Part shown: one piece after another, positions 2 to 18,674 of the stretch
Layout: each line of letters begins with the position of its first letter
Numbering within the stretch: the stretch's first letter is position 1
From: Candidatus Nanoarchaeia archaeon
GTDB taxonomy: Archaea; Nanobdellota; Nanobdellia; Woesearchaeales; DATDTY01
Assembly: GCA_035290625.1 (NCBI GenBank)
Contig: DATDTY010000013.1
Coordinates: 1 to 37,547 of the forward strand
Length of the DNA: 37,547 bases
Direction of reading: 5' to 3'
Program-made: the position numbers and the translations under genes
Notes under the pieces: model-generated
Told to the model about the DNA's origin: nothing
Database searches by the model: none
Seen by the model: the letters and a program-made list of their open reading frames with translations, nothing else

Positions 2-1039
2 GGAAGAGCCCAGGATTTGGAGAGCAAGATTAATGAAGTTACTGAGCAGCATCAGAAGGAGCTTGGGCTGCTTGAGAAGCAGTTTAAGCAGCAGCATGAG
101 GGGTGGGAGGAGGAGCTCAGCGCTCTACATAGGGATGTTGATGTTTTGGAAGAACGATTGCGGTTCAATCAGGAACTGTTAAAGTCCCATAGAAGAGGCC
201 CTATAAACAAGCCTGCTATTGAGAACTTTGTCAAAATCCTTATTGGGGCATACCAGCTGGAAACGTTTGTGACAGAGCAAGATCGGGATTTAATAACGGA
301 GGGGCTGATATACCGGGGATTTGACACGAGACTATGCTCTTTCCTTAACGGAGAGAATCATAATATCCATTCCGATGAGCAGAGGCGCCTTCTCGATAAG
401 GTAATTGAATTTGAGCGAGATGCCAGAGTTGAACAGGACACGCTCCCGGGCGTCTTTATGTATATCATTATTGCTTCCAGAATGTATGATATCCTAGATC
501 AGTATGAGGAGGGCATGGGTAAACAACTTGTGCAAAGCGAAAAACAGTTCCTAACCAGCCACCTCGGCTGGAAGTACCACAGAATCGTAAAGCTCAGACA
601 GAATGATGGAGTGAATGAGGAACTCGAGGTATGGGCTTTGAAGAAGTCCATTGAAAAGTACAAAGAAAGCATCCAATTGGGAAAACATGGCCATCAGGAT
701 TATCGGCATCTCGCGCTTTCGCTAAAAGACTATGCAGTTAAGATATCGGATGCGGCTGAATGCGCTGGCTGTCTCGCTGAGGCGAAAGAGGCTGTGCTGC
801 AATTCATGAAGAAAGCTGAACTCGCGTGTACTCCTGAGAATCCCAACCATCTCATTAGACATGAAGTTGCTTCTGCGGAAGATATTATTCTGGAAATTCT
901 TGCGTTTACAAAATATGGGCCTTTGAAGGGAGCCCCTGCGATTAGGGAGATTAACAAGGACTACTGGAAGTTATACAATCCTGATTTTATGGTCTTCAAG
1001 CAAAAGTTAGGGCTTCTTGATGAACGCAGCAATCCTTAG
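2..1039 (+). CDS. Hypothetical protein, 5'-truncated; N-terminal coiled coil followed by an alpha-helical region
   Basis: The frame of ORF 17..1039 is open back to position 2, so the gene probably starts before the window. E/K/Q-rich heptads at the N-terminus. Its 3' end overlaps the convergent gene by 33 nt. Confidence 0.7.
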   Translation, partial: GRAQDLESKINEVTEQHQKELGLLEKQFKQQHEGWEEELSALHRDVDVLEERLRFNQELLKSHRRGPINKPAIENFVKILIGAYQLETFVTEQDRDLITEGLIYRGFDTRLCSFLNGENHNIHSDEQRRLLDKVIEFERDARVEQDTLPGVFMYIIIASRMYDILDQYEEGMGKQLVQSEKQFLTSHLGWKYHRIVKLRQNDGVNEELEVWALKKSIEKYKESIQLGKHGHQDYRHLALSLKDYAVKISDAAECAGCLAEAKEAVLQFMKKAELACTPENPNHLIRHEVASAEDIILEILAFTKYGPLKGAPAIREINKDYWKLYNPDFMVFKQKLGLLDERSNP

Positions 1040-1741
1040 CAAAACAAACCTCTCTGCCCACGCCAGATACAAGACAAGGCTTGCTGTTGTTGCAATGGAA
1101 TAGATCAATGGAGGGGCGAAGTATAACAAGAGGAGGATTCCCAAACTGATGATGAGGGTGAGTGCTGCAAAGAGGAAGGGCTGGATTAAGGAGGGGAATC
1201 TGGTGATTGCAAGAGAGAAGGTTTTCTTGAATGGGATTTTTTCCTTCGTGCTTAAGACACTGAAGATGGGCGTGGTGTAGAGGAAGACGCCTCCAAGAAT
1301 GATGGAAAGGATCTGCTGCTGAGAAGTGTAGCGGAAGACTGCTGCAACAAGCAGAGCCCAGGCTGCATACCAAAAAATATTTAGAATGATAAAACGGAGA
1401 ATAAATTTCTTTGGTTGGAAGAGGAGCAGGAGGATTGCTGCTGTAAAGAGGGTGATAAGGATAAATGCTGATACGCCTGCTATCCAGAAAAGCTGCTCAG
1501 CTCTGCCTATGGAGTCTTCAAACTGAGACTGAAGAATTTGCATCTCTCCCAAAGAGAGCTCTTTTTCAAAATCTGGAACTTCCGGAAGCTTTTGGAAGGC
1601 ATTTCCAATTTCCGCATTCAATACACTCACGCCTGCAACAATACTTGCAAGAAGAAGTATGTTCGCCAGAATCAACAATAGAAATGATTTGCTGATGCTG
1701 AAGCTTCTTTTGTATTCTGCCCAGTGGATTGAGCTTTTCAT
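1007..1741 (-). CDS. Polytopic membrane protein (about 6 TM helices), last gene of the surface operon
   Basis: Several hydrophobic helices. ATG at 1741 (MKSSIHW) lies just after the upstream stop at 1745-1743; ATG 1756 is an alternative start. Confidence 0.75.
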   Translation of the reverse strand: MKSSIHWAEYKRSFSISKSFLLLILANILLLASIVAGVSVLNAEIGNAFQKLPEVPDFEKELSLGEMQILQSQFEDSIGRAEQLFWIAGVSAFILITLFTAAILLLLFQPKKFILRFIILNIFWYAAWALLVAAVFRYTSQQQILSIILGGVFLYTTPIFSVLSTKEKIPFKKTFSLAITRFPSLIQPFLFAALTLIISLGILLLLYFAPPLIYSIATTASLVLYLAWAERFVLLRIAAFIKKP

Positions 1742-1742
1742 C

Positions 1743-4115
1743 TTAAATATCCCCATTCAGCCCAGGCTGGTTTGAAGCTTGCAGCCCAGGAGTTGTCCGT
1801 TCAGGATTTTCAGTGCCTCCAAGGCCTTCTCCTCCGGAGCCTTCAGGCATGGCCATGCAGTCAGGAAGGAAGTCTGATAACGAGGAGCAGATGTTTCCCT
1901 CACGCAGCGCAACCTCTTCTGAATCAACAATAGGGCTGCAGAGTTCAGAGCCTTCCTGGATGCCTATCAAGCAAGGGCTGAGCTGCGGGCCTATCACTTG
2001 GGGATCAAGCCTTGTAAATCTGATGCAGATCTGGTTGTAGTTTCTTGCGCTTTCAAAGAATTTTGAGTCTGTAACCCTGTTAATTTCACCATCCCTTGTT
2101 GCAGTATACATGAAGGGCAGGGCGTTTCCTGTGTCAGTAACCATCGGTATTGCTGCATCTCCTTTCAGCCAGATCTCAAAATTAATCGTGCAGCCTCTCT
2201 CTTCTGAACCGCCGATAACTCCAAAGCTTGCGCGGTAGAGATAGCTGGATTGCGGAGGTTGCGCGCTGTAATTCGTTACACGGACTTTTGTTGCCTCAAC
2301 ATGGGCTGATGCTCCTCCTGTTGGGGTGTCTGAAAAAGCAATTCCTGCATCAATGCTGTCTACTGCTTTCTGCCTGCAGGCCAATGATTCCCAGCCATCC
2401 ATTCCTCCAAGGATGCCTGTGACGAGCTCGTTCTCGATTAAAGGCTGAGGGTCTGTGTAGAAGATATTCAGACCTCTATAGCCTGAGGTGATGTAGCCGA
2501 TCCTGTCAAGGGAGGTTCCTATGGCTGCTGAGTAGTAATCCCACCAGCCGACTTCGTCTCCTTGTGTTTGGCTGCTGGTAAGGAGGCCATTGCTGCTGAG
2601 CCTGTAATAGGTGGTAACACCAGCATCAGTTCGCTGGAAGTAGGTGTTGCCGAGAGGAGTTGGTGTTGAGGTGCCGGTGAATTCTTGTCTTTCTTGGTAT
2701 GCGCCTTGGTCATTAACTGGGTAGATGAAATAATTGTCTTCACCATTTACAATGGTCTGGCCTAAAATGGCGCCGTTACGATAGGTGGTAAGCGGAGTTG
2801 TTGAGATGATTGTATCATCTATATCTGTTACATATGCAACATACCTGTTGTCTTGTGTGTGGAAGGTTCCATCAGCTAATAAGGTTGCTGATTCGCCTTC
2901 TCCATCAGGGATTGGAATGGTAAATACTCCGTTTTGATCGCTCTGAAGAGGACGGTTTGAATCCGGCATAATATATACTCTGCTTGTCGGTCTTCCACCT
3001 TCACCTATCGCCACATAACTAAATCCCCTTCTTCCTTGATCATAGGCCGTAAAGCTGCGGCCGATTTGGGTTGTTGCTATTGGAGTAAAGCTGAAGACAT
3101 CTTGGCCGGAGTAGTATTGGTTGGTGGTGCCGGGGAGGAGTTGGCCGACTTTCGTTTTTTCCCCGAGGTTATATACCTCATGTGTTTGAGGATGAGTCCA
3201 GAAGATTTGTTGAGGAGCTACGGTGGTAGCAGCTTGCGCACCAGTAGATGCCTGAGCAGATTGGTAACTCACAGAACCGTAGCCTAAAGGATTCCCATTA
3301 GCATCCTGGTACACAAAGAGATTATTTGGAAGAGCTGATTCGCTCGCGATATTATTTTTGAAAATACGGATTTCTTCTCCTTGACTGTTTCTAGCACTAA
3401 TCATTACTTGCGCAAGGCGTTGTGCTGCAGGTGGTTCTGTCCCCAGCTGTAGCGCTTCTGCTCCTGAAACATAGCCGTACACATGCACACCACTAGGAAG
3501 ATTTTCCGATGCGTAAAACTGCCCATCGTCTCCGAGAACATACCAGGTTTCAGCCTGTAATTGAGTTATAGGTATTGAAGAGCCTTGCGGTTGAAGGCTG
3601 GTTTGATAATTTTGGACAGATTGAATATAAGCCCTAGTATCCGCAGGGATGCCATCATACCAACGCTCGCCGTTCCGGCCAAGCGCTCGGTTCAAATCTC
3701 CTTCTCCCCAGTTATAGGCAGCCAGAGCTTTTGGTCTGTTTCCGCCATACTGACTGACAAGACGCGCATAATGCATGGTTCCTGCTTGAATGTTTTGGGT
3801 TGGGTTATAAGAGTCAACTACTTGGTAATACCCCTCCCCATTTGGCTTGAAGTAATCATAGTTAAGCTGCATCAGACCTCGGCTATCTTCACCGAGAGTA
3901 TTGTGGGCGGCCGGGTTAAAATTCGATTCTTGTTGTATAATCCCTTTAATTTCTGCTGAAGTAATAGCAGCGTTCGGATATGCGCTATTCGCGCTTGAAA
4001 CAGCAGCTGCAATAATTTGATCGTAAGCATTTGGTTGAGAGGTTTGCGCGTGAGCGATTTGCGTACCTGTTAAAATAAGTACCAGTACCAACAACGCTAT
4101 TAGTTTATTCTTCAT
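1743..4115 (-). CDS. Secreted protein with an N-terminal soluble lytic transglycosylase (SLT/GH23-like) domain and a long uncharacterised C-terminal region
   Basis: Signal peptide MKNKLIALLVLVLILTGTQIAHA. SLT motifs IIQQESNFNPAA (catalytic Glu), SRGLMQL, NPTQNIQAGTMHY, ALAAYNWGEG and TRAYIQSV. Cys-containing C-terminal domain. Confidence 0.9.
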   Translation of the reverse strand: MKNKLIALLVLVLILTGTQIAHAQTSQPNAYDQIIAAAVSSANSAYPNAAITSAEIKGIIQQESNFNPAAHNTLGEDSRGLMQLNYDYFKPNGEGYYQVVDSYNPTQNIQAGTMHYARLVSQYGGNRPKALAAYNWGEGDLNRALGRNGERWYDGIPADTRAYIQSVQNYQTSLQPQGSSIPITQLQAETWYVLGDDGQFYASENLPSGVHVYGYVSGAEALQLGTEPPAAQRLAQVMISARNSQGEEIRIFKNNIASESALPNNLFVYQDANGNPLGYGSVSYQSAQASTGAQAATTVAPQQIFWTHPQTHEVYNLGEKTKVGQLLPGTTNQYYSGQDVFSFTPIATTQIGRSFTAYDQGRRGFSYVAIGEGGRPTSRVYIMPDSNRPLQSDQNGVFTIPIPDGEGESATLLADGTFHTQDNRYVAYVTDIDDTIISTTPLTTYRNGAILGQTIVNGEDNYFIYPVNDQGAYQERQEFTGTSTPTPLGNTYFQRTDAGVTTYYRLSSNGLLTSSQTQGDEVGWWDYYSAAIGTSLDRIGYITSGYRGLNIFYTDPQPLIENELVTGILGGMDGWESLACRQKAVDSIDAGIAFSDTPTGGASAHVEATKVRVTNYSAQPPQSSYLYRASFGVIGGSEERGCTINFEIWLKGDAAIPMVTDTGNALPFMYTATRDGEINRVTDSKFFESARNYNQICIRFTRLDPQVIGPQLSPCLIGIQEGSELCSPIVDSEEVALREGNICSSLSDFLPDCMAMPEGSGGEGLGGTENPERTTPGLQASNQPGLNGDI

Positions 4116-7100
4116 CTCTCAACGCCTTGTCACAGACTTCATTTCCTAATGTTGCATCCTGCCAGAACGGAGTGCAGCCTCCTAAGCCGAGGTCGCAGCC
4201 GATCTCAAGGAAGACATTCAAAAAATCTGCATAACTACAAGCAGTGCAAAGGCCTGGTATCGGGTTAGGTGTCGGTGTTGCACATGTGATACGGCAAGAT
4301 CCACTTGCTATAAACCCTACCAATGCGAGAGGGCTGGAAAGCGCGGTGAGTATGTTCTGGGCAATAACTGAGATGGCTGCAGCAAAGGGAATGAGGTTGA
4401 AGAACTCTCCGAAGACAAATTTGCACTGCTGATAGCTCTTGCGCTCTGAGCAGATGCTGACGGGCAATCCGTCCTTCGCAAGCTTCAAGCAGCCGATGTA
4501 CTCACATTCAATTGCCCTTGCCTTCTGGAGGTTGAAGATGATCCCTGGAAGGCAGAGGAATGCTATGCTGAGGATAAGGCTTCCCTGAGGATCAACATTT
4601 CCAAAGTAGTCTTCTCTGCTATTAGCCTGGTTCTGGAGGAACCAGGGAGAGGCTATGATCCTTTGATACCAACTCGCGCCTGCTCCTTCTTCTGGGATTC
4701 TGCTAGTGCTCCAAGGATCGCTTTCGGGTGTTGGCTCTCTATCTGTTACCTGGCGTTGATTGGACCCATAAGGTGTATCAGAGTCGGAGCCCAACCAGTC
4801 TTTCTTCCACATTTGGCAGCTGAGGAGCTTGCACCATTTATTCCCTGACTCTCTGTAAAGTTTCTTGAAGGTTTCCTTTCCTGCTTCAAGACCTGCAGCT
4901 TCTGCTGTCTGGGCTTGACAGCAGGGGCTATTTGGCCCACCAAAAATAAAGAAAGTGGTTGCACAACAGCTTTTGAATCCATCTGTAATGGCAGCCCAGG
5001 TTTGCTTAATCTGCTCCCATCTGTACAGGAACCTGCAAACTGTTTGCGCAAATCTCAGGATCGTATTTGCAATGTCAAGCCACTCTGCCTTGACAAGCCA
5101 GCTGTCTTTTGCTTTTTCAATCTCTGCGTCAATGTTTGCAGCAGCATTCCCTAAAGGATTGTTGTAGTAGGGAATCTCAACTGCAACCTCCTGGGACTCT
5201 GCTATTGATACTGTTTCATCATTCACCAATGTCCTGATGTTGATGTTGCAGGTTACAGGAACAACAGGAGATTCGGGGGCTCTTTGCTTCATTGTGTATT
5301 TGAGATAGAACTGATAATGTCCAGGCTGCCTGTTTGCAACTGAATTGAAATCAACAATCTCAGGCTTATTCTTCTCAGAGCTGAGGAGCGTATTCTGGCC
5401 AGAGCAGTCTCCAACTTGGATGTCAACAGGAAAAACATTTTGCTGTTTTGGAGTCAGGGTAATAGGGAACCAGATAAAGGGATCGTAAAAGGTTACTAAA
5501 CTGCGGTCAATGCCATGGGGAGAAGGCTCTCCTACTGCAAGATCCCAGTAATCAACAGGAGCCTGTCCTCCTGTTCCATAGACTCTGACTGGAAGAGTTT
5601 CCCTGTGCTCATTTCCTGCAACATCTGTAAATATCAGAATAAGGTTGGCGTCGAATGGTCCTGGCCTGTCGATGAGCATTTCCTGATTCCAGGTGCATCG
5701 ATAGCCTGCTGCTGTTGCCACACAATCTGCCTGTTTGCTTGTTGCTCCTTGCTGGAGCCCTGAATAATCTGTTACTGCAGTTATGAGTGAGCTATCGGAG
5801 ACATCTGCAATGATCTCAAGGCCGCTGTTGAGGGTAGGGACTGTGGTAAGGGAATTTTGAGAGGTTTGCACAGTACGGAAGCTGGAAGAAGATACTGTTG
5901 GAGGCTCTCTATCGATGCTGAAGGAAAATCCCTCGTTGGGCTGGAGCGGATTGCCTAACGCATCTGCTGATTCAGCGAAACGAAGCGTGACTGCGCCTGT
6001 TCCTTGGGTTGCAGCAACGCCTTCCCAGGTGCACGTTTTGCTGGTTGTTGAGTTATCGCAGGAGGTTGCTGGAACTCTGATTGAGCCTCCGATTGGAGAA
6101 AGGTCGAGAAACACCATTTGAGAGTTCATGGCGTTGTTTTCTGTGAAGGTTGCTGTGAGGGTATTATTCTGGCTGCCGAGCCAGCTCACGCCTGGATCAG
6201 CTCCGTCATCAACATGATTTGAAACAAGGCTTGCTGCCTGAGGGCCTTCTTCGTCTATCTTTAAGGTTGCTGAGAGAGGGGTTGTTGTTGACTGGCCTGC
6301 ATTATCTGCTGCCGTAAATGATATAGAAACTTGATTCTGTCCTGATGGCAGATCAATAAGAACATCTCGCCAAGTGCATTCCCATACGCCTTCAGCCAGT
6401 GTGCAGGGGCTTGGACCAGGACTGTAGGATGGATTTATCAAAACGGGGTTCAACGCCTGCAAATTTGCACCCAGAGAGTTGATATTCAGTCCGGTTTCTG
6501 GATCAGTGATGCCAACAGAAACATCGACGCTGCTTATGCTTCGGCTGAACCATCCTGTAAGAGGCTGCCCGTTTTTTAATATCCTGAGCTCTGAGATGCG
6601 CGGCCCAAGAGTGTCCTGTTGGAAGTCGTGAGTAAGGGCTATATTTTGAGTGACTCTATTCCCTGCATTATCTGAAACAGTGATTGGGATATCAAAATTG
6701 AAATTTACTGCTGTGAGGGTATAGGGAAATGCCCAGGAGCATCTGGTTACACCATTGACTGGTGCTTGGCAGGTTACGGGCTGATTGGCTAGGCCAAACA
6801 GGGCAAGGTTTGCTGCCACGCTTGATGAATTCAAGTCTGATTCGGTAATGTCGATGCTAAAGCTTACAGCAACAGGGATAGGAGCATAATACACAACAGG
6901 TGCATTTCCTTCTGTGATTTGAAGCTCATGGAGAGTGAATGCAGGAAGGGTTTTATCAACCCTGAAAGAGACTGATGCTGTTGCTGACTGGTCAAAGTAG
7001 TCTTTGGCGATAAGCGGAATTGTGTTAGGGCCGTCTGCAAGGTCAGAGGCAGCAAGAGTGAAGGATTCCTGAAGAGTGCATCTGCCTTGAGGCCTGTTGA

Positions 7101-7668
7101 GGACATGTTCCACTCCATTTACTGTTACTGACTTGAGACCAACACATTCGTTTTGTCGAACAGAGGGTTCTGTAGATGAGTTCTCCCTGATGTTAGCGGT
7201 TATCCTGACAGTATCGCCAGCAGCGTACAATTGCTTATCAGTTGAGATTGAGACAATTTCTGGAGGAAGATGATCGCAGACTGAGCGTATATCTGCCTGA
7301 TATCGTGTTTGCGTTCCTCGGTCATCATAGAGTGCTACCTGGAAATTTTCTGAATCGCAGACACGAAGGGTATGGAAGTCCTGATTCGGAAGGCTGCAGA
7401 GATACCCAAGGTCTGGATGGCTGTCATCAAACACACATGCCTCAAACTGCCTTCCGCTTGGCAAGCGCACTTGGTCTGGGGTGATTGTTGGGTCAGTCGG
7501 AAGCTGGGCATAGACCCAGAAGCTGAAGAGATCCTGGGAATTCCTGACATAACCTGGAATATTGTCGTTGCCCTTCACCTCTCCGTTATTCAATCCGTAA
7601 ATCGCTGCTGTGGAGACTGGCAAGAGGATGATAAGCCAGCTCATGAAGAGGGCAAGGAACCGTTTCAT
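4105..7668 (-). CDS. Large secreted/surface protein with Ig-like repeats and a Cys-rich, partly hydrophobic C-terminal domain
   Basis: Signal peptide. Repeated Ig-type boundaries DHLPP/DKTLP/DTLGP/DEEGP/DREPP and D-x-A/L-G-N/Q turns, each repeat with a Cys pair and a CxW motif. The C-terminal ~330 aa has many Cys and the segment SLILSIAFLCLPGIIFNLQKAR. Overlaps both neighbours (translational coupling). Confidence 0.85.
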   Translation of the reverse strand: MKRFLALFMSWLIILLPVSTAAIYGLNNGEVKGNDNIPGYVRNSQDLFSFWVYAQLPTDPTITPDQVRLPSGRQFEACVFDDSHPDLGYLCSLPNQDFHTLRVCDSENFQVALYDDRGTQTRYQADIRSVCDHLPPEIVSISTDKQLYAAGDTVRITANIRENSSTEPSVRQNECVGLKSVTVNGVEHVLNRPQGRCTLQESFTLAASDLADGPNTIPLIAKDYFDQSATASVSFRVDKTLPAFTLHELQITEGNAPVVYYAPIPVAVSFSIDITESDLNSSSVAANLALFGLANQPVTCQAPVNGVTRCSWAFPYTLTAVNFNFDIPITVSDNAGNRVTQNIALTHDFQQDTLGPRISELRILKNGQPLTGWFSRSISSVDVSVGITDPETGLNINSLGANLQALNPVLINPSYSPGPSPCTLAEGVWECTWRDVLIDLPSGQNQVSISFTAADNAGQSTTTPLSATLKIDEEGPQAASLVSNHVDDGADPGVSWLGSQNNTLTATFTENNAMNSQMVFLDLSPIGGSIRVPATSCDNSTTSKTCTWEGVAATQGTGAVTLRFAESADALGNPLQPNEGFSFSIDREPPTVSSSSFRTVQTSQNSLTTVPTLNSGLEIIADVSDSSLITAVTDYSGLQQGATSKQADCVATAAGYRCTWNQEMLIDRPGPFDANLILIFTDVAGNEHRETLPVRVYGTGGQAPVDYWDLAVGEPSPHGIDRSLVTFYDPFIWFPITLTPKQQNVFPVDIQVGDCSGQNTLLSSEKNKPEIVDFNSVANRQPGHYQFYLKYTMKQRAPESPVVPVTCNINIRTLVNDETVSIAESQEVAVEIPYYNNPLGNAAANIDAEIEKAKDSWLVKAEWLDIANTILRFAQTVCRFLYRWEQIKQTWAAITDGFKSCCATTFFIFGGPNSPCCQAQTAEAAGLEAGKETFKKLYRESGNKWCKLLSCQMWKKDWLGSDSDTPYGSNQRQVTDREPTPESDPWSTSRIPEEGAGASWYQRIIASPWFLQNQANSREDYFGNVDPQGSLILSIAFLCLPGIIFNLQKARAIECEYIGCLKLAKDGLPVSICSERKSYQQCKFVFGEFFNLIPFAAAISVIAQNILTALSSPLALVGFIASGSCRITCATPTPNPIPGLCTACSYADFLNVFLEIGCDLGLGGCTPFWQDATLGNEVCDKALRDEE

Positions 7669-9881
7669 TCTATGCTAACCTCGCCAGGATGGTCGCTGCT
7701 GAATTCCTCTTTTTTCCCGGCTGTTCGTATGTGGTCGTCTGTGTAAAGATTGTCAAAGGTCTGCGGGCTTGCAATGACTCCAAATTGGATAGGGGTGTCG
7801 ACTCGGGCACGATCGTCAAGGAACTCTGGAGAGAATCTGAAGGTTCGGTAAGCGCCCCCTATTTGCATATCAGAGTCATAGGGTATGGGTTCAGTCGTTA
7901 CTCTGACATCATCCCCAAACACGCCGCCATCCTTTTTATAGGTTTGTCCTTGGAATACGACATTTGTCCTTTCGGCATTTGGAAGCTGGTACATGAGGTC
8001 TATGTCAATTTGGTAGTTTCCAGGAGCAATGGAGATCTCAACTGGGCCTGTGCTATCGTTATAGAGCGCAAATACAGGATCAAGATCAGGATCTGAGGGG
8101 TCGTCTTTGAGGTGCTGGAGCTGGATCATAGCATAATCATACTGTTCAAGAGGGACTTTGATCCAATCAAACTGCCAGCTCCCATCAATACGCATATGTC
8201 TCGCTTTCTCAACCATAACTTTAACCGTACGGTAGGGCTCAAGCTCAACCCGCAGGGTTTCTCCTGAGCAGATGACTGAAGGATCTTCACAGCGTGCATC
8301 TATTGCTCGGTTTGCATCGCAGAGCACAGTTGCTCGCGTTGTATTGGTCACATAGCCTTCCTTTGAGAATGAAAGAGTTCCCCCTGCCACTGAAGGAAGA
8401 TTGGCTGCTCCATCAGTTGAGCTAATGCTGCACTGTTCAGCCTCTATGCCATAGCTTACTGCAACATCATCAATAATGGATGCTGTCTTTGCGTCTGTTG
8501 CTTCAATTCTCACATCAGCGCATGCAACTGCTGGCCTGCAGAGATTTGTTGCCACAGGCGGGTATGAAGAAACTCTTCCGCTTCCTGTGCAGTTGATTGG
8601 CTTGTTGTCCCTCACATTTGCCTCAAGGCCGAAATAAAATTTATACCCTCTTGAATTGAATGCGTCGGGATCATACAGCTGGACAACTACAGGAAAAGAG
8701 GCATCATAATAAAAGTTGTATCTCCTGCTGATGCCAATCAATGGAAAAAAACCTGAGGATATTGTTTCAGGCCCTATCGAGTCTCCTTCCACGCCTCTTC
8801 CTGTAATGTCAAAATAGATCGGCCAGTCGATATAATTAAAATTTGCGTCATAATTGGCAAACTGCGCGTCAAATTGCAGGCTTTGCGGATTTGGCAAAAG
8901 ATTTGCAGGATTCAAGAAGGGGTTATGGATCAGGAAGGTTGCTGCCTGGAGCGGCGTGCTTCCCCTATCCCGGTAATTATGGAGAGGATATACCTGAAGG
9001 AGTGACGTGTAAGGAAGCACATCTCTCTGGAATTTCTCTGTTACCTGCTGCTTGCTCCATCGCTCTTCCCTGCTTCCTGGGCCGAACTGCGATGCAGACA
9101 TCGGAGGAAGCCTGTTGCGGTCCAATGGAAGGGATAATGTGCTGATTATAGATGTTGTCCATTTTTCAATTATCGAGTAGTTCTGCTGGGTGTTGAGGAT
9201 TAACTCTGCAAGGCCGTAAGTCCTGTTGAGGTTTACAGGAAGCCTGATGACAGACTGGCCGAAATCCTGCTTTTGCTCTTCTTTCCTGGCCTGGAAAGGA
9301 TAGGTGACGAAGATGGTTACATCGTTTTCACCAATATCTGTGTCTACTGAGATGTCTGCATCTGAGGGAAGCTGGAAGTCAAATCCCTGGCTGCGAAAGA
9401 TGTTAAAATTATCAATGCAGGAAGGCAATTGCCGCTCAACATATTCTGAGATCCTGCTTTCAATGGAATTTGGGCCTTTCAAAGGAGGCTTTTCAGAGGC
9501 GCAGTTGCAGTTTTGCCTGCAGGTGTTGGTGCTTGCGAAGTGAATCCAATACGGGACAGCGCTTGCCGGCTCGTTGGTTAAGGTTCTTACGCCTTCGCTT
9601 TCAGTTGGCTCTGCTGTTGCAGAAAAACTGAGGTCGCTGCTCAGATACCCCCCATGCTCGCCTAAATTCTTAATTCCTGCTTCTCCTGTCGAAGAGATGC
9701 AATTGTCAACAAAACTTCTGACAGGCTGGAAGAGGACAGGGGTTTCTTCCCGGAAAATCTCAGGAACATCTACTCTTGCGGTCTGCTGCGTTGAATAGAG
9801 GACAAGGCCGATGCTGATGAGAAGCAGGATGCCGATTATAATAAACAAGGTTACCTGAGCCCTTCTTGCCTGCAAAAGCAT
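7665..9881 (-). CDS. Large pilin-like protein with a class III (prepilin) signal peptide
   Basis: ATG 9881 preceded by AGAGGGGA. N-terminus MLLQARRA/QVTLFIIIGILLLISIGLVLY fits the archaeal class III signal (basic residues, G/A, cleavage, hydrophobic stretch). The ORF-track start at 9926 is probably too early. Confidence 0.8.
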   Translation of the reverse strand: MLLQARRAQVTLFIIIGILLLISIGLVLYSTQQTARVDVPEIFREETPVLFQPVRSFVDNCISSTGEAGIKNLGEHGGYLSSDLSFSATAEPTESEGVRTLTNEPASAVPYWIHFASTNTCRQNCNCASEKPPLKGPNSIESRISEYVERQLPSCIDNFNIFRSQGFDFQLPSDADISVDTDIGENDVTIFVTYPFQARKEEQKQDFGQSVIRLPVNLNRTYGLAELILNTQQNYSIIEKWTTSIISTLSLPLDRNRLPPMSASQFGPGSREERWSKQQVTEKFQRDVLPYTSLLQVYPLHNYRDRGSTPLQAATFLIHNPFLNPANLLPNPQSLQFDAQFANYDANFNYIDWPIYFDITGRGVEGDSIGPETISSGFFPLIGISRRYNFYYDASFPVVVQLYDPDAFNSRGYKFYFGLEANVRDNKPINCTGSGRVSSYPPVATNLCRPAVACADVRIEATDAKTASIIDDVAVSYGIEAEQCSISSTDGAANLPSVAGGTLSFSKEGYVTNTTRATVLCDANRAIDARCEDPSVICSGETLRVELEPYRTVKVMVEKARHMRIDGSWQFDWIKVPLEQYDYAMIQLQHLKDDPSDPDLDPVFALYNDSTGPVEISIAPGNYQIDIDLMYQLPNAERTNVVFQGQTYKKDGGVFGDDVRVTTEPIPYDSDMQIGGAYRTFRFSPEFLDDRARVDTPIQFGVIASPQTFDNLYTDDHIRTAGKKEEFSSDHPGEVSIE

Positions 9882-9933
9882 TTCCCCTCTTTTTGATAGA
9901 CTAAACCCTAGTGAGGAAGATACCAAGAAGGAG

Positions 9934-9953
9934 TGTATTTATAGGTTTCTGTT
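9934..9953 (-). promoter_or_regulatory. BRE/TATA promoter of the surface operon
   Basis: Minus strand reads ACAGAAACCTATAAATACA about 55-70 nt upstream of ATG 9881. Confidence 0.5.
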
Positions 9954-10007: not shown

Positions 10008-11288
10008 TTAAAGAAGCAGGTATTTCCATAGAGGGGTAAACAACAATCCTGGCTCATGTTTCTCAGTGTCCTTAGTTATTATCACCAGTCGTTTTGCCTT
10101 CTTAAATTTATTTTTAAACTCTTCCATGGCTTTAATCTCTCTTTCCGGAATTTCATCGGCATAGCAGACATTTATTGCTGTTAATGAGTTGTCTTTATTT
10201 TTTATGACAAAATCCACTTCTCCTTTGCCGCTCCAATAGTAAAATTCCTTTTCTGCCGCGGTTAGATGTATAAAGACGAGATTCTCCGCTAATTTTCCCT
10301 CATCTTTTGAAAACTTAAAGCTGACTGCGTTTCTTAATCCATTGTCTATGCAGTAAACTTTTGAGGCGTTTGCTTTTTGCTCTTTGATAGAATACGAGAA
10401 ATAGTCTAAAGTAAAAAACAAAAACGCCTCTTTATAATAAGAGAGGTAGTCTTTTATTGCATCATAGGACAGGCTAAGCGAATTCCTTAAACTTCTCAGG
10501 GACACCAAACTCGTAAAATTCGCAGCAAAGTATAATGCAAGATCCTTTGCCTTTTGCACATTTAGGTTATATCTGTCAACTATGTCCTTGTAGAGTATAT
10601 CATCGAAATATTGCTCAAGAACCGTGGTTTTGTATTGTTTTGGCTTGAAAAAAATCTCTGGAAATCCCCCATGAGCCATATATTCTCTCAAGGACTTTAG
10701 TATAGAAAATTTTGTCTTCTCCAGGAGTATCCCTTTCTTAAGCTTCTCTTTATCTATCTCAAGGCCCTTGAAAGACAAGAATTCCTCAAAACTTAAAGGA
10801 AAAACCTCAAACGCTATGTTTCTGCCTGTCAAAAGGGTTGAATATTCCTTTTTTAATAGATACGAGCAAGAGCCAGACACAACAAATTTTTCATTGCTTT
10901 TTAAGTCGTATTTTTTCCTTATCCATGACTCCCATCCCTCTTTTCTATGAACTTCGTCAAGAAAAATATAGGCCTTCTTGTCAAGATTTATGTTTTCCCT
11001 GTAGCATCCGTATATATCATCCAGTGAGTCATTTAAGAGCTTCTTGTCCTCCAAGTTGATAAATAATATCTGCTCTGGAGCTGTGCCTTCATTCATTAAA
11101 TGGTCAATCATCTGGAACATCAACGTGCTCTTTCCAGATCTTCTGACGCCGGTTATTACTGTTATTTCCTTTAAGTCTATAGAGTTAGTCAGATGCGCGT
11201 ATTTAGGCCTTGGCTTTCCTTTCAGCCCTTCTATAAACTCCTTCTTTTCCCACCAGGGGTTCCATTCAGTAAGTTTTCCTATTTCCAT
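10008..11288 (-). CDS. AAA+ ATPase, COG1373 type (AAA_14 plus DUF4143)
   Basis: NPWW at the N-terminus, Walker A GVRRSGKST, Walker B IFLDEV, SGS, LTGR, GGFPE, KVYCIDNGL, LAENLV and EVDFV motifs. Visibly more AT-rich than its neighbours. Confidence 0.9.
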   Translation of the reverse strand: MEIGKLTEWNPWWEKKEFIEGLKGKPRPKYAHLTNSIDLKEITVITGVRRSGKSTLMFQMIDHLMNEGTAPEQILFINLEDKKLLNDSLDDIYGCYRENINLDKKAYIFLDEVHRKEGWESWIRKKYDLKSNEKFVVSGSCSYLLKKEYSTLLTGRNIAFEVFPLSFEEFLSFKGLEIDKEKLKKGILLEKTKFSILKSLREYMAHGGFPEIFFKPKQYKTTVLEQYFDDILYKDIVDRYNLNVQKAKDLALYFAANFTSLVSLRSLRNSLSLSYDAIKDYLSYYKEAFLFFTLDYFSYSIKEQKANASKVYCIDNGLRNAVSFKFSKDEGKLAENLVFIHLTAAEKEFYYWSGKGEVDFVIKNKDNSLTAINVCYADEIPEREIKAMEEFKNKFKKAKRLVIITKDTEKHEPGLLFTPLWKYLLL

Positions 11289-12907: not shown

Positions 12908-13966
12908 GTGGTTAAAATCAAAAAGCTACTATTGGCATTAAGCATTTTTATGATACTGGCTGCTTCGCTTGCGAGCGCAGTTACAGTGACAAATATCAGC
13001 AATTCTAAATTAAATATTCGTGATATTGAGGTTACGGTTGATGGAAGCAAGGATTCCTCAGTCAGCCAGGGAGATGAAGTAGGCCCGGATGTGAAGCCTC
13101 AATCCACGATCAAGATGGAGTTCAAGTTTGAGAACCTCTTTTCAACCACTGAGGATATAGATATCCAGGACATTACTGCTACTGTCATTATCCGGGATAT
13201 TGATGATGGCGAAGATCTTGAAGAGGAAATCAGCGACTTTGACCTTAAGCCTGGCAGAGAAAAGACCCAGCGGGCTTCATTCACAGCTCCTCTAAAGATT
13301 GACGAGGGGTTGTATGACGTTGATGTCGAGGTTGAGGCAAGCGATGAGAACAACACTGACTATGACCTTGTCTGGACATTCCAGCTGAATGTTGACAAGG
13401 AGAAGCATAAGGTCATCATCCACAAAAAGGAGCTTTCAAGCCCTGAGATCCAGATCGGAAAGTCTGCTGACCTTACCCTAGGCATCATTAACATCGGCCA
13501 AGAGGATGAGGATGATGTCACTTTGGAAGTCACCAGCAAGGAGCTTGGGCTGAACAAGAAGGAGACATTCAGCATGAGCGCTGATATCGATGATGAGGAC
13601 AACGCGATGACCAGGGCCTACACCATCAGGCCTGAGAATGTTGAGCCCGGGATATATAGCATCAGTATCAAGGCAAGCTACCAAGATGGAGACAAGGTGG
13701 ACACTGCTACTCAGAGCATAACAGTTTTAGCAGCTCCTCAGCCTACACCTGAAGAGGTTGTTGTTGTGACTGCGCCGCAGGCACAAGAACCGATTATGGG
13801 AGAGGTCCTTTTACCTACCTATATCCCGCCCGTGTCTGAGAGCGAGACGCCAAGCCTTGGCTTCCTTAACGGCAACATGAGCTATATTGCCTTGATTGGC
13901 TTAGCATACGTCATCGTGATTGTTGTTGGCGTCGTAGTTGCAGTCAGGATGTTCAGGAAGGAGTAA
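12908..13966 (+). CDS. S-layer-like/CARDB-like Ig-fold surface protein with a C-terminal TM anchor
   Basis: Signal peptide, two acidic beta-sandwich domains (..NIGQEDEDDV.., EGLYDVDVEV, PGIYSISIKASY), P/E/V-rich linker, and a C-terminal TM helix with a basic tail. T-rich tract downstream. Confidence 0.75.
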   Translation: MVKIKKLLLALSIFMILAASLASAVTVTNISNSKLNIRDIEVTVDGSKDSSVSQGDEVGPDVKPQSTIKMEFKFENLFSTTEDIDIQDITATVIIRDIDDGEDLEEEISDFDLKPGREKTQRASFTAPLKIDEGLYDVDVEVEASDENNTDYDLVWTFQLNVDKEKHKVIIHKKELSSPEIQIGKSADLTLGIINIGQEDEDDVTLEVTSKELGLNKKETFSMSADIDDEDNAMTRAYTIRPENVEPGIYSISIKASYQDGDKVDTATQSITVLAAPQPTPEEVVVVTAPQAQEPIMGEVLLPTYIPPVSESETPSLGFLNGNMSYIALIGLAYVIVIVVGVVVAVRMFRKE

Positions 13967-17220: not shown

Positions 17221-18087
17221 ATGATTACGATGAAAAAGATTGCAAGAAGACAAGTTAACCTTGAAAACAAAGTACGGAAGGATTTCCCCAGGTATACGGG
17301 CAGGAATGCCCAACGGCATTACCAGCGGCTTTCATTGCTGGTTGCGTTTCTTTTCGTGGCTTTGGTTATTGGAAGCTTGATTGGGAATAACGGAAGGGAT
17401 AGGGCCGGGTTGGCGGCAAATGATGCGAGGCAATCGTTTGAGTCTGATATTTTAACAGAAGGGTCTAGTAAAACATATTATTTAAATGGGGTACAGTATG
17501 ATGTAACATTGTATCTTGTGGCTACTGCTAATCAAGTAGCTAAGTTTATCGTCAATGGTGAATATACTACTTCGTTGGCGGAAGGGGAATCTTACACATT
17601 AGCTGATGGAGCAATAATCTCAGTAAAGAATATTTTGATTGGAGCCGTATCTTTTGTTGAATTCATACCAAGTGGCTCAAATAGGGTTGAATTTCACCTT
17701 ATTCCAGCAAGAGTTGGTGGAGCAGAACCTCCTTCTCCGCCCAGCCCACAGCCTACGCCAGAATCTAGCTTGACGAGGCGAGAGGTTTTAGATATGCTGA
17801 ATGGGTGCGAGGCATATCCCGTTTTATTACGCGACGTTGGGCTAGATGTAGATATTGCTTCTGTTGATACTAATTCAGACGCGCTTATATCAGGAGACGA
17901 ATTATGCAATAATTATTATCGGTTGTTTCCTTGGGTTAGCAGAGCAGGAGTCTGTATCCTTTCCCTAGCATATCAGCGATTGAGTGATGAAACCTCTACT
18001 CCACTAGGCTTGCGTTCATGTTCAGAAGGCTTGCCTCATTATGCAGGAGAATATGTTATGACTCCTGTCTGCTGCAGAGCTGAATAA
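17221..18087 (+). CDS. N-terminally anchored surface protein (S-layer-like beta domain, Pro linker, Cys-rich C-terminal domain)
   Basis: TM helix YQRLSLLVAFLFVALVIGSLIG, beta domain LTEGSSKTYYLNGVQYDV..KFIVNGE..LAEGESYTLADG, PPSPPSPQPTP linker, and C-terminal SGDELC..CI..SC..CC. Confidence 0.7.
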   Translation: MITMKKIARRQVNLENKVRKDFPRYTGRNAQRHYQRLSLLVAFLFVALVIGSLIGNNGRDRAGLAANDARQSFESDILTEGSSKTYYLNGVQYDVTLYLVATANQVAKFIVNGEYTTSLAEGESYTLADGAIISVKNILIGAVSFVEFIPSGSNRVEFHLIPARVGGAEPPSPPSPQPTPESSLTRREVLDMLNGCEAYPVLLRDVGLDVDIASVDTNSDALISGDELCNNYYRLFPWVSRAGVCILSLAYQRLSDETSTPLGLRSCSEGLPHYAGEYVMTPVCCRAE

Positions 18088-18299
18088 ATGCCGCATATGA
18101 GGATAGATAGCAAGTATATATAAGCAGATTGAGGCATAATCATCTTCATCTCACGCGATGTTGTTTATTTTACTTTTGATCTCCCTAGGGAGTTGCAGAC
18201 ATTTCTAGGGCAGTCTTCTTTATCAAAAGGTATTTATATGAATGGCCCGATGAGAGTTTAGGTATGATGCCCATTCCTGCATACCGGTGATTTCATATC

Positions 18300-18674
18300 A
18301 TGGCAAGAAAAAGGGAGTCTCTTGGAGGGAGCCTAAAGAGTGAGCCCCCAACGCACATAAGCTTCAGTGCTTACCAGTATCAAAGGCTTGGATTCCTGGC
18401 TGCTTTTCTTTTTGCTGCTTTGGTTGTTGGAAGCTGGATCGGCAATATGGGTATGAATACAGGGGAGAACAGGATTGGGCTTGCGAGCGAGACTGCTATC
18501 CAGAAAGGGGATGTCGATGGAGACGGGAGCATCACACGGGAAGATGTTTACCTTGCATATGATATCGTCCAGGGAAGGGTCATTCCAACTGCTAGCCAAC
18601 GAAGAGCTGCTGACGCCAATGGAGATAACTCTGTGACCATAGAGGATGTAAGAATAATCTTTGGGAAAATCTAG
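18300..18674 (+). CDS. Membrane-anchored dockerin type I domain protein
   Basis: Duplicated Ca-binding motifs GDVDGDGSITREDV and ADANGDNSVTIEDV. N-terminal anchor is paralogous to that of 17221..18087. Confidence 0.85.
   Translation: MARKRESLGGSLKSEPPTHISFSAYQYQRLGFLAAFLFAALVVGSWIGNMGMNTGENRIGLASETAIQKGDVDGDGSITREDVYLAYDIVQGRVIPTASQRRAADANGDNSVTIEDVRIIFGKI

Follow-up and report, generated by a model that had tools for sequence, protein, structure and literature searches.

We analyzed a window of 37,547 nucleotides (positions 1 to 37,547 of contig DATDTY010000013.1, GenBank assembly GCA_035290625.1) from a Candidatus Nanoarchaeia archaeon of the order Woesearchaeales, in which four genes, here called A to D, form a module encoded on the minus strand (Table 1). 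An earlier note, made from the letters of the DNA alone, had described these genes as abutting or overlapping, and all four were found as open reading frames (ORFs) where it had placed them, with overlaps of 4 (A/B), 11 (B/C), and 14 bp (C/D). The archaeal placement of the contig was borne out as well: its SMC protein scored higher with the archaeal model (807 bits) than with the other model (609 bits), and its RNase HII passes TIGR00729. The genome measures 1.37 Mb, with completeness listed as 100, and neither a Mur ligase or transpeptidase nor an M23 peptidase was found in it; because the former were not found, murein of its own that the cell could remodel is not evident. The data sets listed as carrying the locus sequence are groundwater and soil metagenomes, with no RNA data set among them. 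An 8672-base "joint" in the matching contigs was disregarded, as it rests on just 20 letters.

Table 1. Features of the A-to-D locus (positions in the window; aa, amino acids; BRE, B recognition element; Ig, immunoglobulin)
Feature	Residues	Position	Strand	Remarks
Gene A		7665-9881	(-)	738 aa from ATG; TTG start at 9926 likewise open
Gene B		4105-7668	(-)	1187 aa; signal-peptide-like N terminus, tandem Ig-like stalk, C-terminal Cys-rich helical domain
Gene C		1743-4115	(-)	790 aa; signal-peptide-like N terminus, SLT domain, lineage-specific spacer (~180-515), conserved C-terminal domain
Gene D		1007-1756	(-)	249 aa; polytopic membrane protein, family without a name
Class III-like signal RRA/QVTLF and hydrophobic stretch of A		9798-9866	(-)	EppA-type +1 Gln; +5 Phe, not Glu
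Helical Cys-rich domain of B	842-1183	4120-5145	(-)	With the last Ig domain, predicted A-binding surface
SLT (PF01464) lytic transglycosylase domain of C	48-151	3663-3974	(-)	Putative catalytic Glu63 at 3927-3929
Conserved C-terminal domain of C	516-745	1881-2570	(-)	Amphipathic helices, then Cys-containing beta-rich part (alignment)
BRE/TATA-like element upstream of gene A		9936-9951	(-)	Visible in sequence; putative promoter
GAGGGG motif before gene A		9884-9889		Visible in sequence; putative ribosome-binding site

Conservation of the locus in relatives

Matches to B were present in 53 of the 61 genomes of the order, and a profile of its C-terminal part matched 193 of 251 genomes from the phylum, including weak matches in 39 listed genomes of other orders. 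The conserved C-terminal domain of C was found in 185 of 301 genomes of the order, nearly always as a single copy, and formed 1032 clusters at 50% identity in a full HMMER scan, whereas a word-index search with the C-domain alignment returned just 4 proteins. The tallies over 251 and 301 genomes take in some that are marked unpublished (G172, G192, G194, G196, and G420), on which none of the other claims depends. For a survey of gene order, 100 further C loci were taken from 150 listed rows; one without a match to the C profile was dropped, leaving 99, of which 27 were short upstream. The linkage of the four families, which the earlier note had put forward as a check, is kept among these relatives. 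B lies upstream of C in 69 of the 72 loci with enough contig (fused to it in 12, adjacent in 36, and close upstream in 21), and the gene that follows C is D in 46 and an A paralog in 21 of the 99 loci (67 together). Homologs of A stand beside B throughout, and the full locus in many relatives reads A1-B1-C-D1-A2-B2-D2, where B2 is a paralog of B (hhalign, 99.2%). A search of the genome contigs for related loci gave a single 17-residue match, which was put down to chance. The reading of D as a polytopic membrane protein agrees with its hydropathy profile (five windows at a Kyte-Doolittle [KD] value of ≥1.6 and seven at 1.3); it has no Pfam or NCBIfam match, and no Pfam family is common to the members of the D family or to those of the A family.

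In relatives, the module often adjoins a gene that we take, from N-terminal motifs, to be methionyl-tRNA synthetase-like (loci L039, L040, L041, L044, L045, L060-L064, L068, L070, and L071); it is not a neighbor in this window. One relative (G025, L245:1-4078) encodes, a few genes from the module, an RHS/FG-GAP repeat protein that contains TcdB_toxin_midN and SpvB-type domains.

Proteins A and B and the pilus question

Protein A opens with MLLQARRA/QVTLFIIIG, behind which lies a hydrophobic helix of 19 aa (KD, 3.1). Where the earlier note had read a class III signal, a class III-like one is present, and 29 of the 34 aligned homologs keep it in the form [KR][GAS]Q. Compared with EppA-type pilins, A has the [KR][GA] motif with a +1 Gln and a hydrophobic stretch (RA/QV) and lacks the +5 glutamate; A has Phe at position +5, as do 24 of the 29 motif-bearing homologs, and none has Glu. 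EppA-processed sites read RAQI/KGQV (PMC4371748), and the Epd pilins of Methanococcus maripaludis described there have in common with A the [KR][GA]/Q[IV] processing site and the hydrophobic helix behind it. Unlike them, A has no +5 Glu, is a multidomain protein of 738 aa from a family without a pilin Pfam match in any of 34 members, and lies away from motor genes. The relevant passages of the same source list +5 Glu for EppA substrates, not for all archaeal pilins, and report class III signals on substrate-binding proteins too, so that a role of A as an anchor without any filament is equally plausible.

The predicted structure of A (predicted local distance difference test [pLDDT], 82) consists of an N-terminal helix, two conserved alpha/beta regions (spanning ~45-430), a transthyretin/CnaB-like domain (451-551; Z score of 8.8 and root mean square deviation of 1.9 over 78 aligned residues in the fold search), and a last beta domain. 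No type IV pilin fold is among the listed fold matches for A, which are taken up by domain 451-551 and barely sample the N-terminal domains, and a profile search gave no solved relative (best E, 0.026). Matches to gp25/TssE-like folds (Z scores of 5.8 to 5.9) were weak, within the common background, and were set aside.

These data bear on the possibility that a type IV filament carries A at its tip as a minor pilin, the core job of the module being to bring muralytic enzymes to bacterial prey and the unrecognized variable parts of C (see below) being wall targeting as well. Besides the match of the A site to those of EppA-processed pilins, two motor loci of the PilB/TadC type and a prepilin peptidase are present in the genome (contigs C1, C69, and C73), supplying the assembly ATPase, the platform protein, and the peptidase that a pilus machinery needs. 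All are unlinked to the module, the Pfam and NCBIfam scans found no motor gene in the window, and the peptidase ORF (285 aa) is not the large EppA form. Moreover, the predicted helix of A stops at residue 34 and gives way to a low-confidence loop. It is the signal motif that would place A in a pilus; of the pilus association proposed earlier, the EppA-like site stood, while the +5 Glu and a nearby motor gene were wanting, and we consider the minor-pilin explanation unlikely.

The predicted structure of B (pLDDT, 73) is a chain of beta-sandwich (Ig-like) domains ending in an all-helical C-terminal domain. Its tail had been described as Cys rich and hydrophobic, and the first half of this description holds, as domain 842-1183 contains 19 of the 35 Cys residues of B. 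The tail is only moderately hydrophobic: the best 19-aa windows reach a KD value of 1.6 in 1 to 7 of 29 homologs per segment, versus 0 of 29 in an Ig control. A profile search found no solved relative of the C-terminal part (best E, 0.035). When the helical domain was compared with pore-former folds, the fold lists held mostly Ig domains and the profile matches were generic helical bundles (E, ≥0.035). A function of the tail as a transmembrane anchor or distal pore former was dropped, given that its hydrophobicity is inconsistent across homologs and that the predicted A-binding site lies there.

Prediction of the complex, another of the checks proposed with the first reading, supports the binding of A to B. 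The model of A (residues 38 to 432) with B (703 to 1187) scored 0.72, versus 0.00 for the best of three controls. Of 157 solved complexes, 116 attained the mark of 0.72, as did 2 of 215 mismatched pairs (rough counts, since our own alignments were used). Model runs concur on at least 77% of contacts, with a partner pLDDT of at least 77, and the interface uses motifs conserved in both families (714-737 and 837-858 in B and 240-313 in A). The contacts predicted pair B residues 724-728 with A residues 290-296, and B residues 837-846 with A residues 248-258 and 287. The predicted interface lies on the last Ig domain of B and the beginning of the helical domain, which would place B's C-terminal end beside the membrane-proximal part of A, with the stalk pointing away.

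Elsewhere in this genome, on contig C22 (L242:2047-18946), a third A paralog of 546 aa stands at the head of an Ig-repeat giant that measures 4952 aa and has a dockerin-like domain.

The SLT domain and carrier architecture of protein C

The lytic transglycosylase domain proposed for C was confirmed with the hidden Markov model PF01464 (E, 2.9e-21; 75.6 bits against a gathering cut-off of 21.3). Its motif set is intact, with QES (E63), GLMQL (80-84), and AYNWG (133-137) in register with Slt enzymes of solved structure and E63 aligned where one PDB entry has Gln for Glu, making it a putative murein-cleaving enzyme. The GH23 family 1 soluble lytic transglycosylases (Escherichia coli Slt70 and Pseudomonas-type Slt; PDB 1qsa, 6fbt, and 5ohu) align with it over ~125 residues, catalytic motifs included (E, 1.6e-6 to 1.4e-4); in contrast to them, C has no TPR/U and L domains, reaches 28 bits against an NCBIfam whole-protein cut-off of 536, and belongs to an organism without detectable murein synthesis. 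Phage virion lytic transglycosylases (PHROGs 669, 2013, and 342; E, 4e-20 to 2e-13) offer a functional analogy, in that a large structural protein bears an SLT domain to open the wall locally. However, the match is confined to the SLT domain, no PHROG was matched by A, B, or D, and the locus is chromosomal and order-wide.

The SLT domain resembles lysin families of phage virions as well as bacterial Slt proteins, which could also mean that a bacterial or phage SLT gene was misassembled into an archaeal contig. Nevertheless, a single ORF joins the SLT domain to an order-wide archaeal domain, none of the listed SLT relatives exceeds 42% identity, and the guanine-plus-cytosine (GC) content is level over genes A to D. 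Since a contig from another sequencing run, one not flagged as a possible source, covers positions 1364-4461, and with them the whole of gene C, unbroken and with 1 differing letter, the fusion of the SLT domain to the C terminus is no assembly chimera. The artefact explanation is largely refuted, and we regard it as highly improbable.

The conserved domain of C ends at most 57 residues from the C terminus in all 262 distinct C proteins, while the region before it ranges from 95 to 2737 aa. The 222 passengers, as we call these regions, fell into 108 similarity groups, 84 of them singletons, and the window passenger matches one other passenger only, over the SLT domain only. As judged from sequence, then, C is a carrier in which the C-terminal domain is fixed and the passenger hypervariable, SLT being one rare passenger. 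A profile search gave no solved relative of the C-terminal domain, and the ESM Atlas gave no usable match for it or for the C-terminal part of B, a result that shows neither absence nor novelty. Of 129 locus proteins, 21 have this domain of C fused to B, and these fusions suggest that C docks onto the complex; the profile alignment of the domain with B2 is weak (probability, 4.9; E, 0.008) and gives just a hint of homology.

Pfam was applied to two sets of locus proteins (18 and 96) and to 119 of 152 database proteins, and a custom SLT profile to all 262 C proteins. The enzyme or wall-binding domains that Pfam recognized in passengers are peptidoglycan directed, namely, SLT, PG_binding_1 (together with SLT in protein P0096), LysM (in one C protein), and a weak peptidase M15 (in one). 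C-borne SLT domains occur at varying positions, and on a quick tree (136 columns) they correspond to at least two and up to four changes.

Other murein hydrolase genes lie outside the module. In this genome, a second, stand-alone SLT protein of 246 aa (contig C72:15422-16162) is convergent with the gene of a 783-aa exported alpha/beta-hydrolase (lipase-like), and a class III-like protein within a row of five pilin-like genes (contig C19:503-1480, L243) includes a domain of the N-acetylmuramoyl-L-alanine amidase type (Amidase_3; E, 3e-14), in which the His/Glu motifs of the zinc site look intact by eye. In relatives L073, L074, and L098, it is the last gene of a similar pilin-like row, before what is apparently the same downstream gene, that carries SLT, and several SLT proteins of relatives start with class III-like signals (by eye).

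Murein hydrolases on the module and candidate targets

Of the 39 genomes from other orders that matched B, 25 were examined for SLT; 15 have it, 9 of them in an ORF of at least 1200 aa. All nine large SLT ORFs are B homologs (E, 9e-8 to 4e-17) and lie directly behind an A homolog (E, 8e-62 to 2e-103), and three of the nine regions carry a further SLT gene downstream. We infer that these genomes are Pacearchaeota and, from the size and content of their SLT giants, that the giants are fam00969 of Castelle et al. 2021 (PMC8204110), a family of large exported GH23 proteins reported there to occur in 81% of the Pacearchaeota and 59% of the Woesearchaeota and described as possible binders of bacterial hosts. 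Its listed values (length, 1947 aa; signal peptide, 0.79; GH23, 0.53) fit the sister-order giants (~2100 to 2600 aa), which we found to be homologous to B and encoded behind an A gene. The locus in the window resembles fam00969 in that its SLT/GH23-bearing protein is exported, confined to two lineages, and proposed to engage bacterial walls. However, the domain is on a separate 790-aa carrier, not on a giant, and B (1187 aa) has no SLT, although it is homologous to the giants that do. Neither partner genes nor a class III signal nor a carrier domain is mentioned in that paper's passages on fam00969.

Given that SLT is found on C here and, in the sister lineage, on giants of the B family, the sequences indicate that murein hydrolases have been grafted onto the module at differing points in differing lineages. 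The linkage of such an enzyme with the module therefore survives from the earlier note in a broader form, with SLT, LysM, PG_binding_1, and weak M15 domains on C and SLT on the B-family giants.

We favor, with moderate confidence, the reading that A, B, C, and D make up a membrane-anchored surface display complex, near-core in Woesearchaeota, onto which murein hydrolases were repeatedly grafted. A would be anchored through its N-terminal helix, which prepilin peptidase probably trims, and would bind the C-terminal end of B, so that the Ig stalk would extend outward. C would dock via its conserved C-terminal domain and present a fast-changing passenger, and D would be a membrane accessory. The passenger may be the part adapted to the partner cell; here, tipped with a lytic transglycosylase, it might nick peptidoglycan locally at the contact site on a bacterium.

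Several observations weigh against this reading. SLT is clear in 6 of the 262 C proteins (that of the window, P0054, P0096, P0101, L147, and L149, from about five lineages) and weak in 2. From the order background scaled to passenger length, 2.1 to 2.5 C-borne SLT domains would be expected (Poisson P, 0.06 to 0.11 for five, a rough figure, as kin are not independent and the exported-proteome size was estimated from this genome), and the enrichment on C is modest. Most passengers have no recognizable domain, and the few other Pfam matches (Stig1, OCRE, and weak coiled-coil) have no relation to cell walls. None of 17 B2 paralogs bears SLT, the paralogous second half of the locus (A2-B2-D2) is on a separate contig (C18) in this genome, and the nine sister-order regions had been picked for SLT in a large ORF. 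With SLT in so few C proteins, the module cannot, in most carriers, be a machine dedicated to muralysis, and the idea of SLT as a conserved part of the operon in Woesearchaeota had to be given up. The same rarity on C counts against the minor-pilin explanation introduced above, with its muralytic core job, which the frequency of SLT on the B-family giant (9 of 25 sister-lineage genomes) would suit.

Alternatively, the module could be a general envelope or adhesion structure, perhaps serving contact with archaeal hosts or cell shape, and SLT an opportunistic graft that scavenges or binds wall fragments of dead bacteria. This would accord with a near-core module on whose C protein SLT is barely above background, and with the presence of SLT somewhere in 40 of the 61 genomes of the order, on many unrelated proteins. 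As far as is known, cultured DPANN have archaeal hosts. The abstract of PMC8204110, too, refers to some DPANN known as episymbionts of archaea. Nonetheless, SLT, LysM, PG_binding_1, and M15 were independently and repeatedly grafted onto different module members in two lineages, which argues for regular contact with murein, and we find the envelope explanation rather unlikely. Going beyond the display complex, we tentatively propose that A-B-C-D is a lineage-wide host-contact apparatus of Woesearchaeota and Pacearchaeota with exchangeable passengers, in which captures of murein hydrolases mark independent moves onto bacterial hosts; if so, the passenger would predict the host type.

The SLT enzymes of these archaea and the idea of bacterial hosts are already published (PMC8204110, PMC9723730, and PMC12352652). 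Strock et al. 2025 (PMC12352652) describe archaeal peptidoglycan hydrolases that kill bacteria, and Vigneron et al. 2022 (PMC9723730) describe "vampiristic" Woesearchaeota. Our case resembles theirs in that archaeal murein hydrolases, noted as prominent in Nanoarchaeota, would be aimed at bacteria, whereas the relevant passages of these works concern zoocin A-like M23 enzymes or gene inventories and describe no anchoring module. Neither the module nor the C carrier domain nor the A-B interaction was found in the literature searched (most subscription papers and bioRxiv supplements lay outside its coverage, and the Castelle supplement was covered in part). The four genes make up a real, conserved surface module with a rare SLT passenger, apparently undescribed, and since the enzyme-on-bacteria idea is in print, the gain is the architecture.

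The conserved four-part module, the predicted A-B interface, and the defined carrier domain are concrete targets for study. Woesearchaeota and Pacearchaeota are abundant and diverse, and little is known of their hosts and attachment machinery. If the target were living bacteria, the module would be a device for cross-domain parasitism of an archaeon on a bacterium.

Directly upstream of the module, positions 10008-11288 of the window hold an AAA_14/DUF4143 ATPase gene with 36% GC, versus ~47% around it, and the loose ends of several matching contigs near 10100-10300 suggest that the ATPase region is a variable insertion. Farther along, at 12908-13966 and 17221-18674, the window encodes a protein that is putatively S-layer-like (weak NF033506 match) and two small proteins anchored in the membrane, one of which has a dockerin-like domain.

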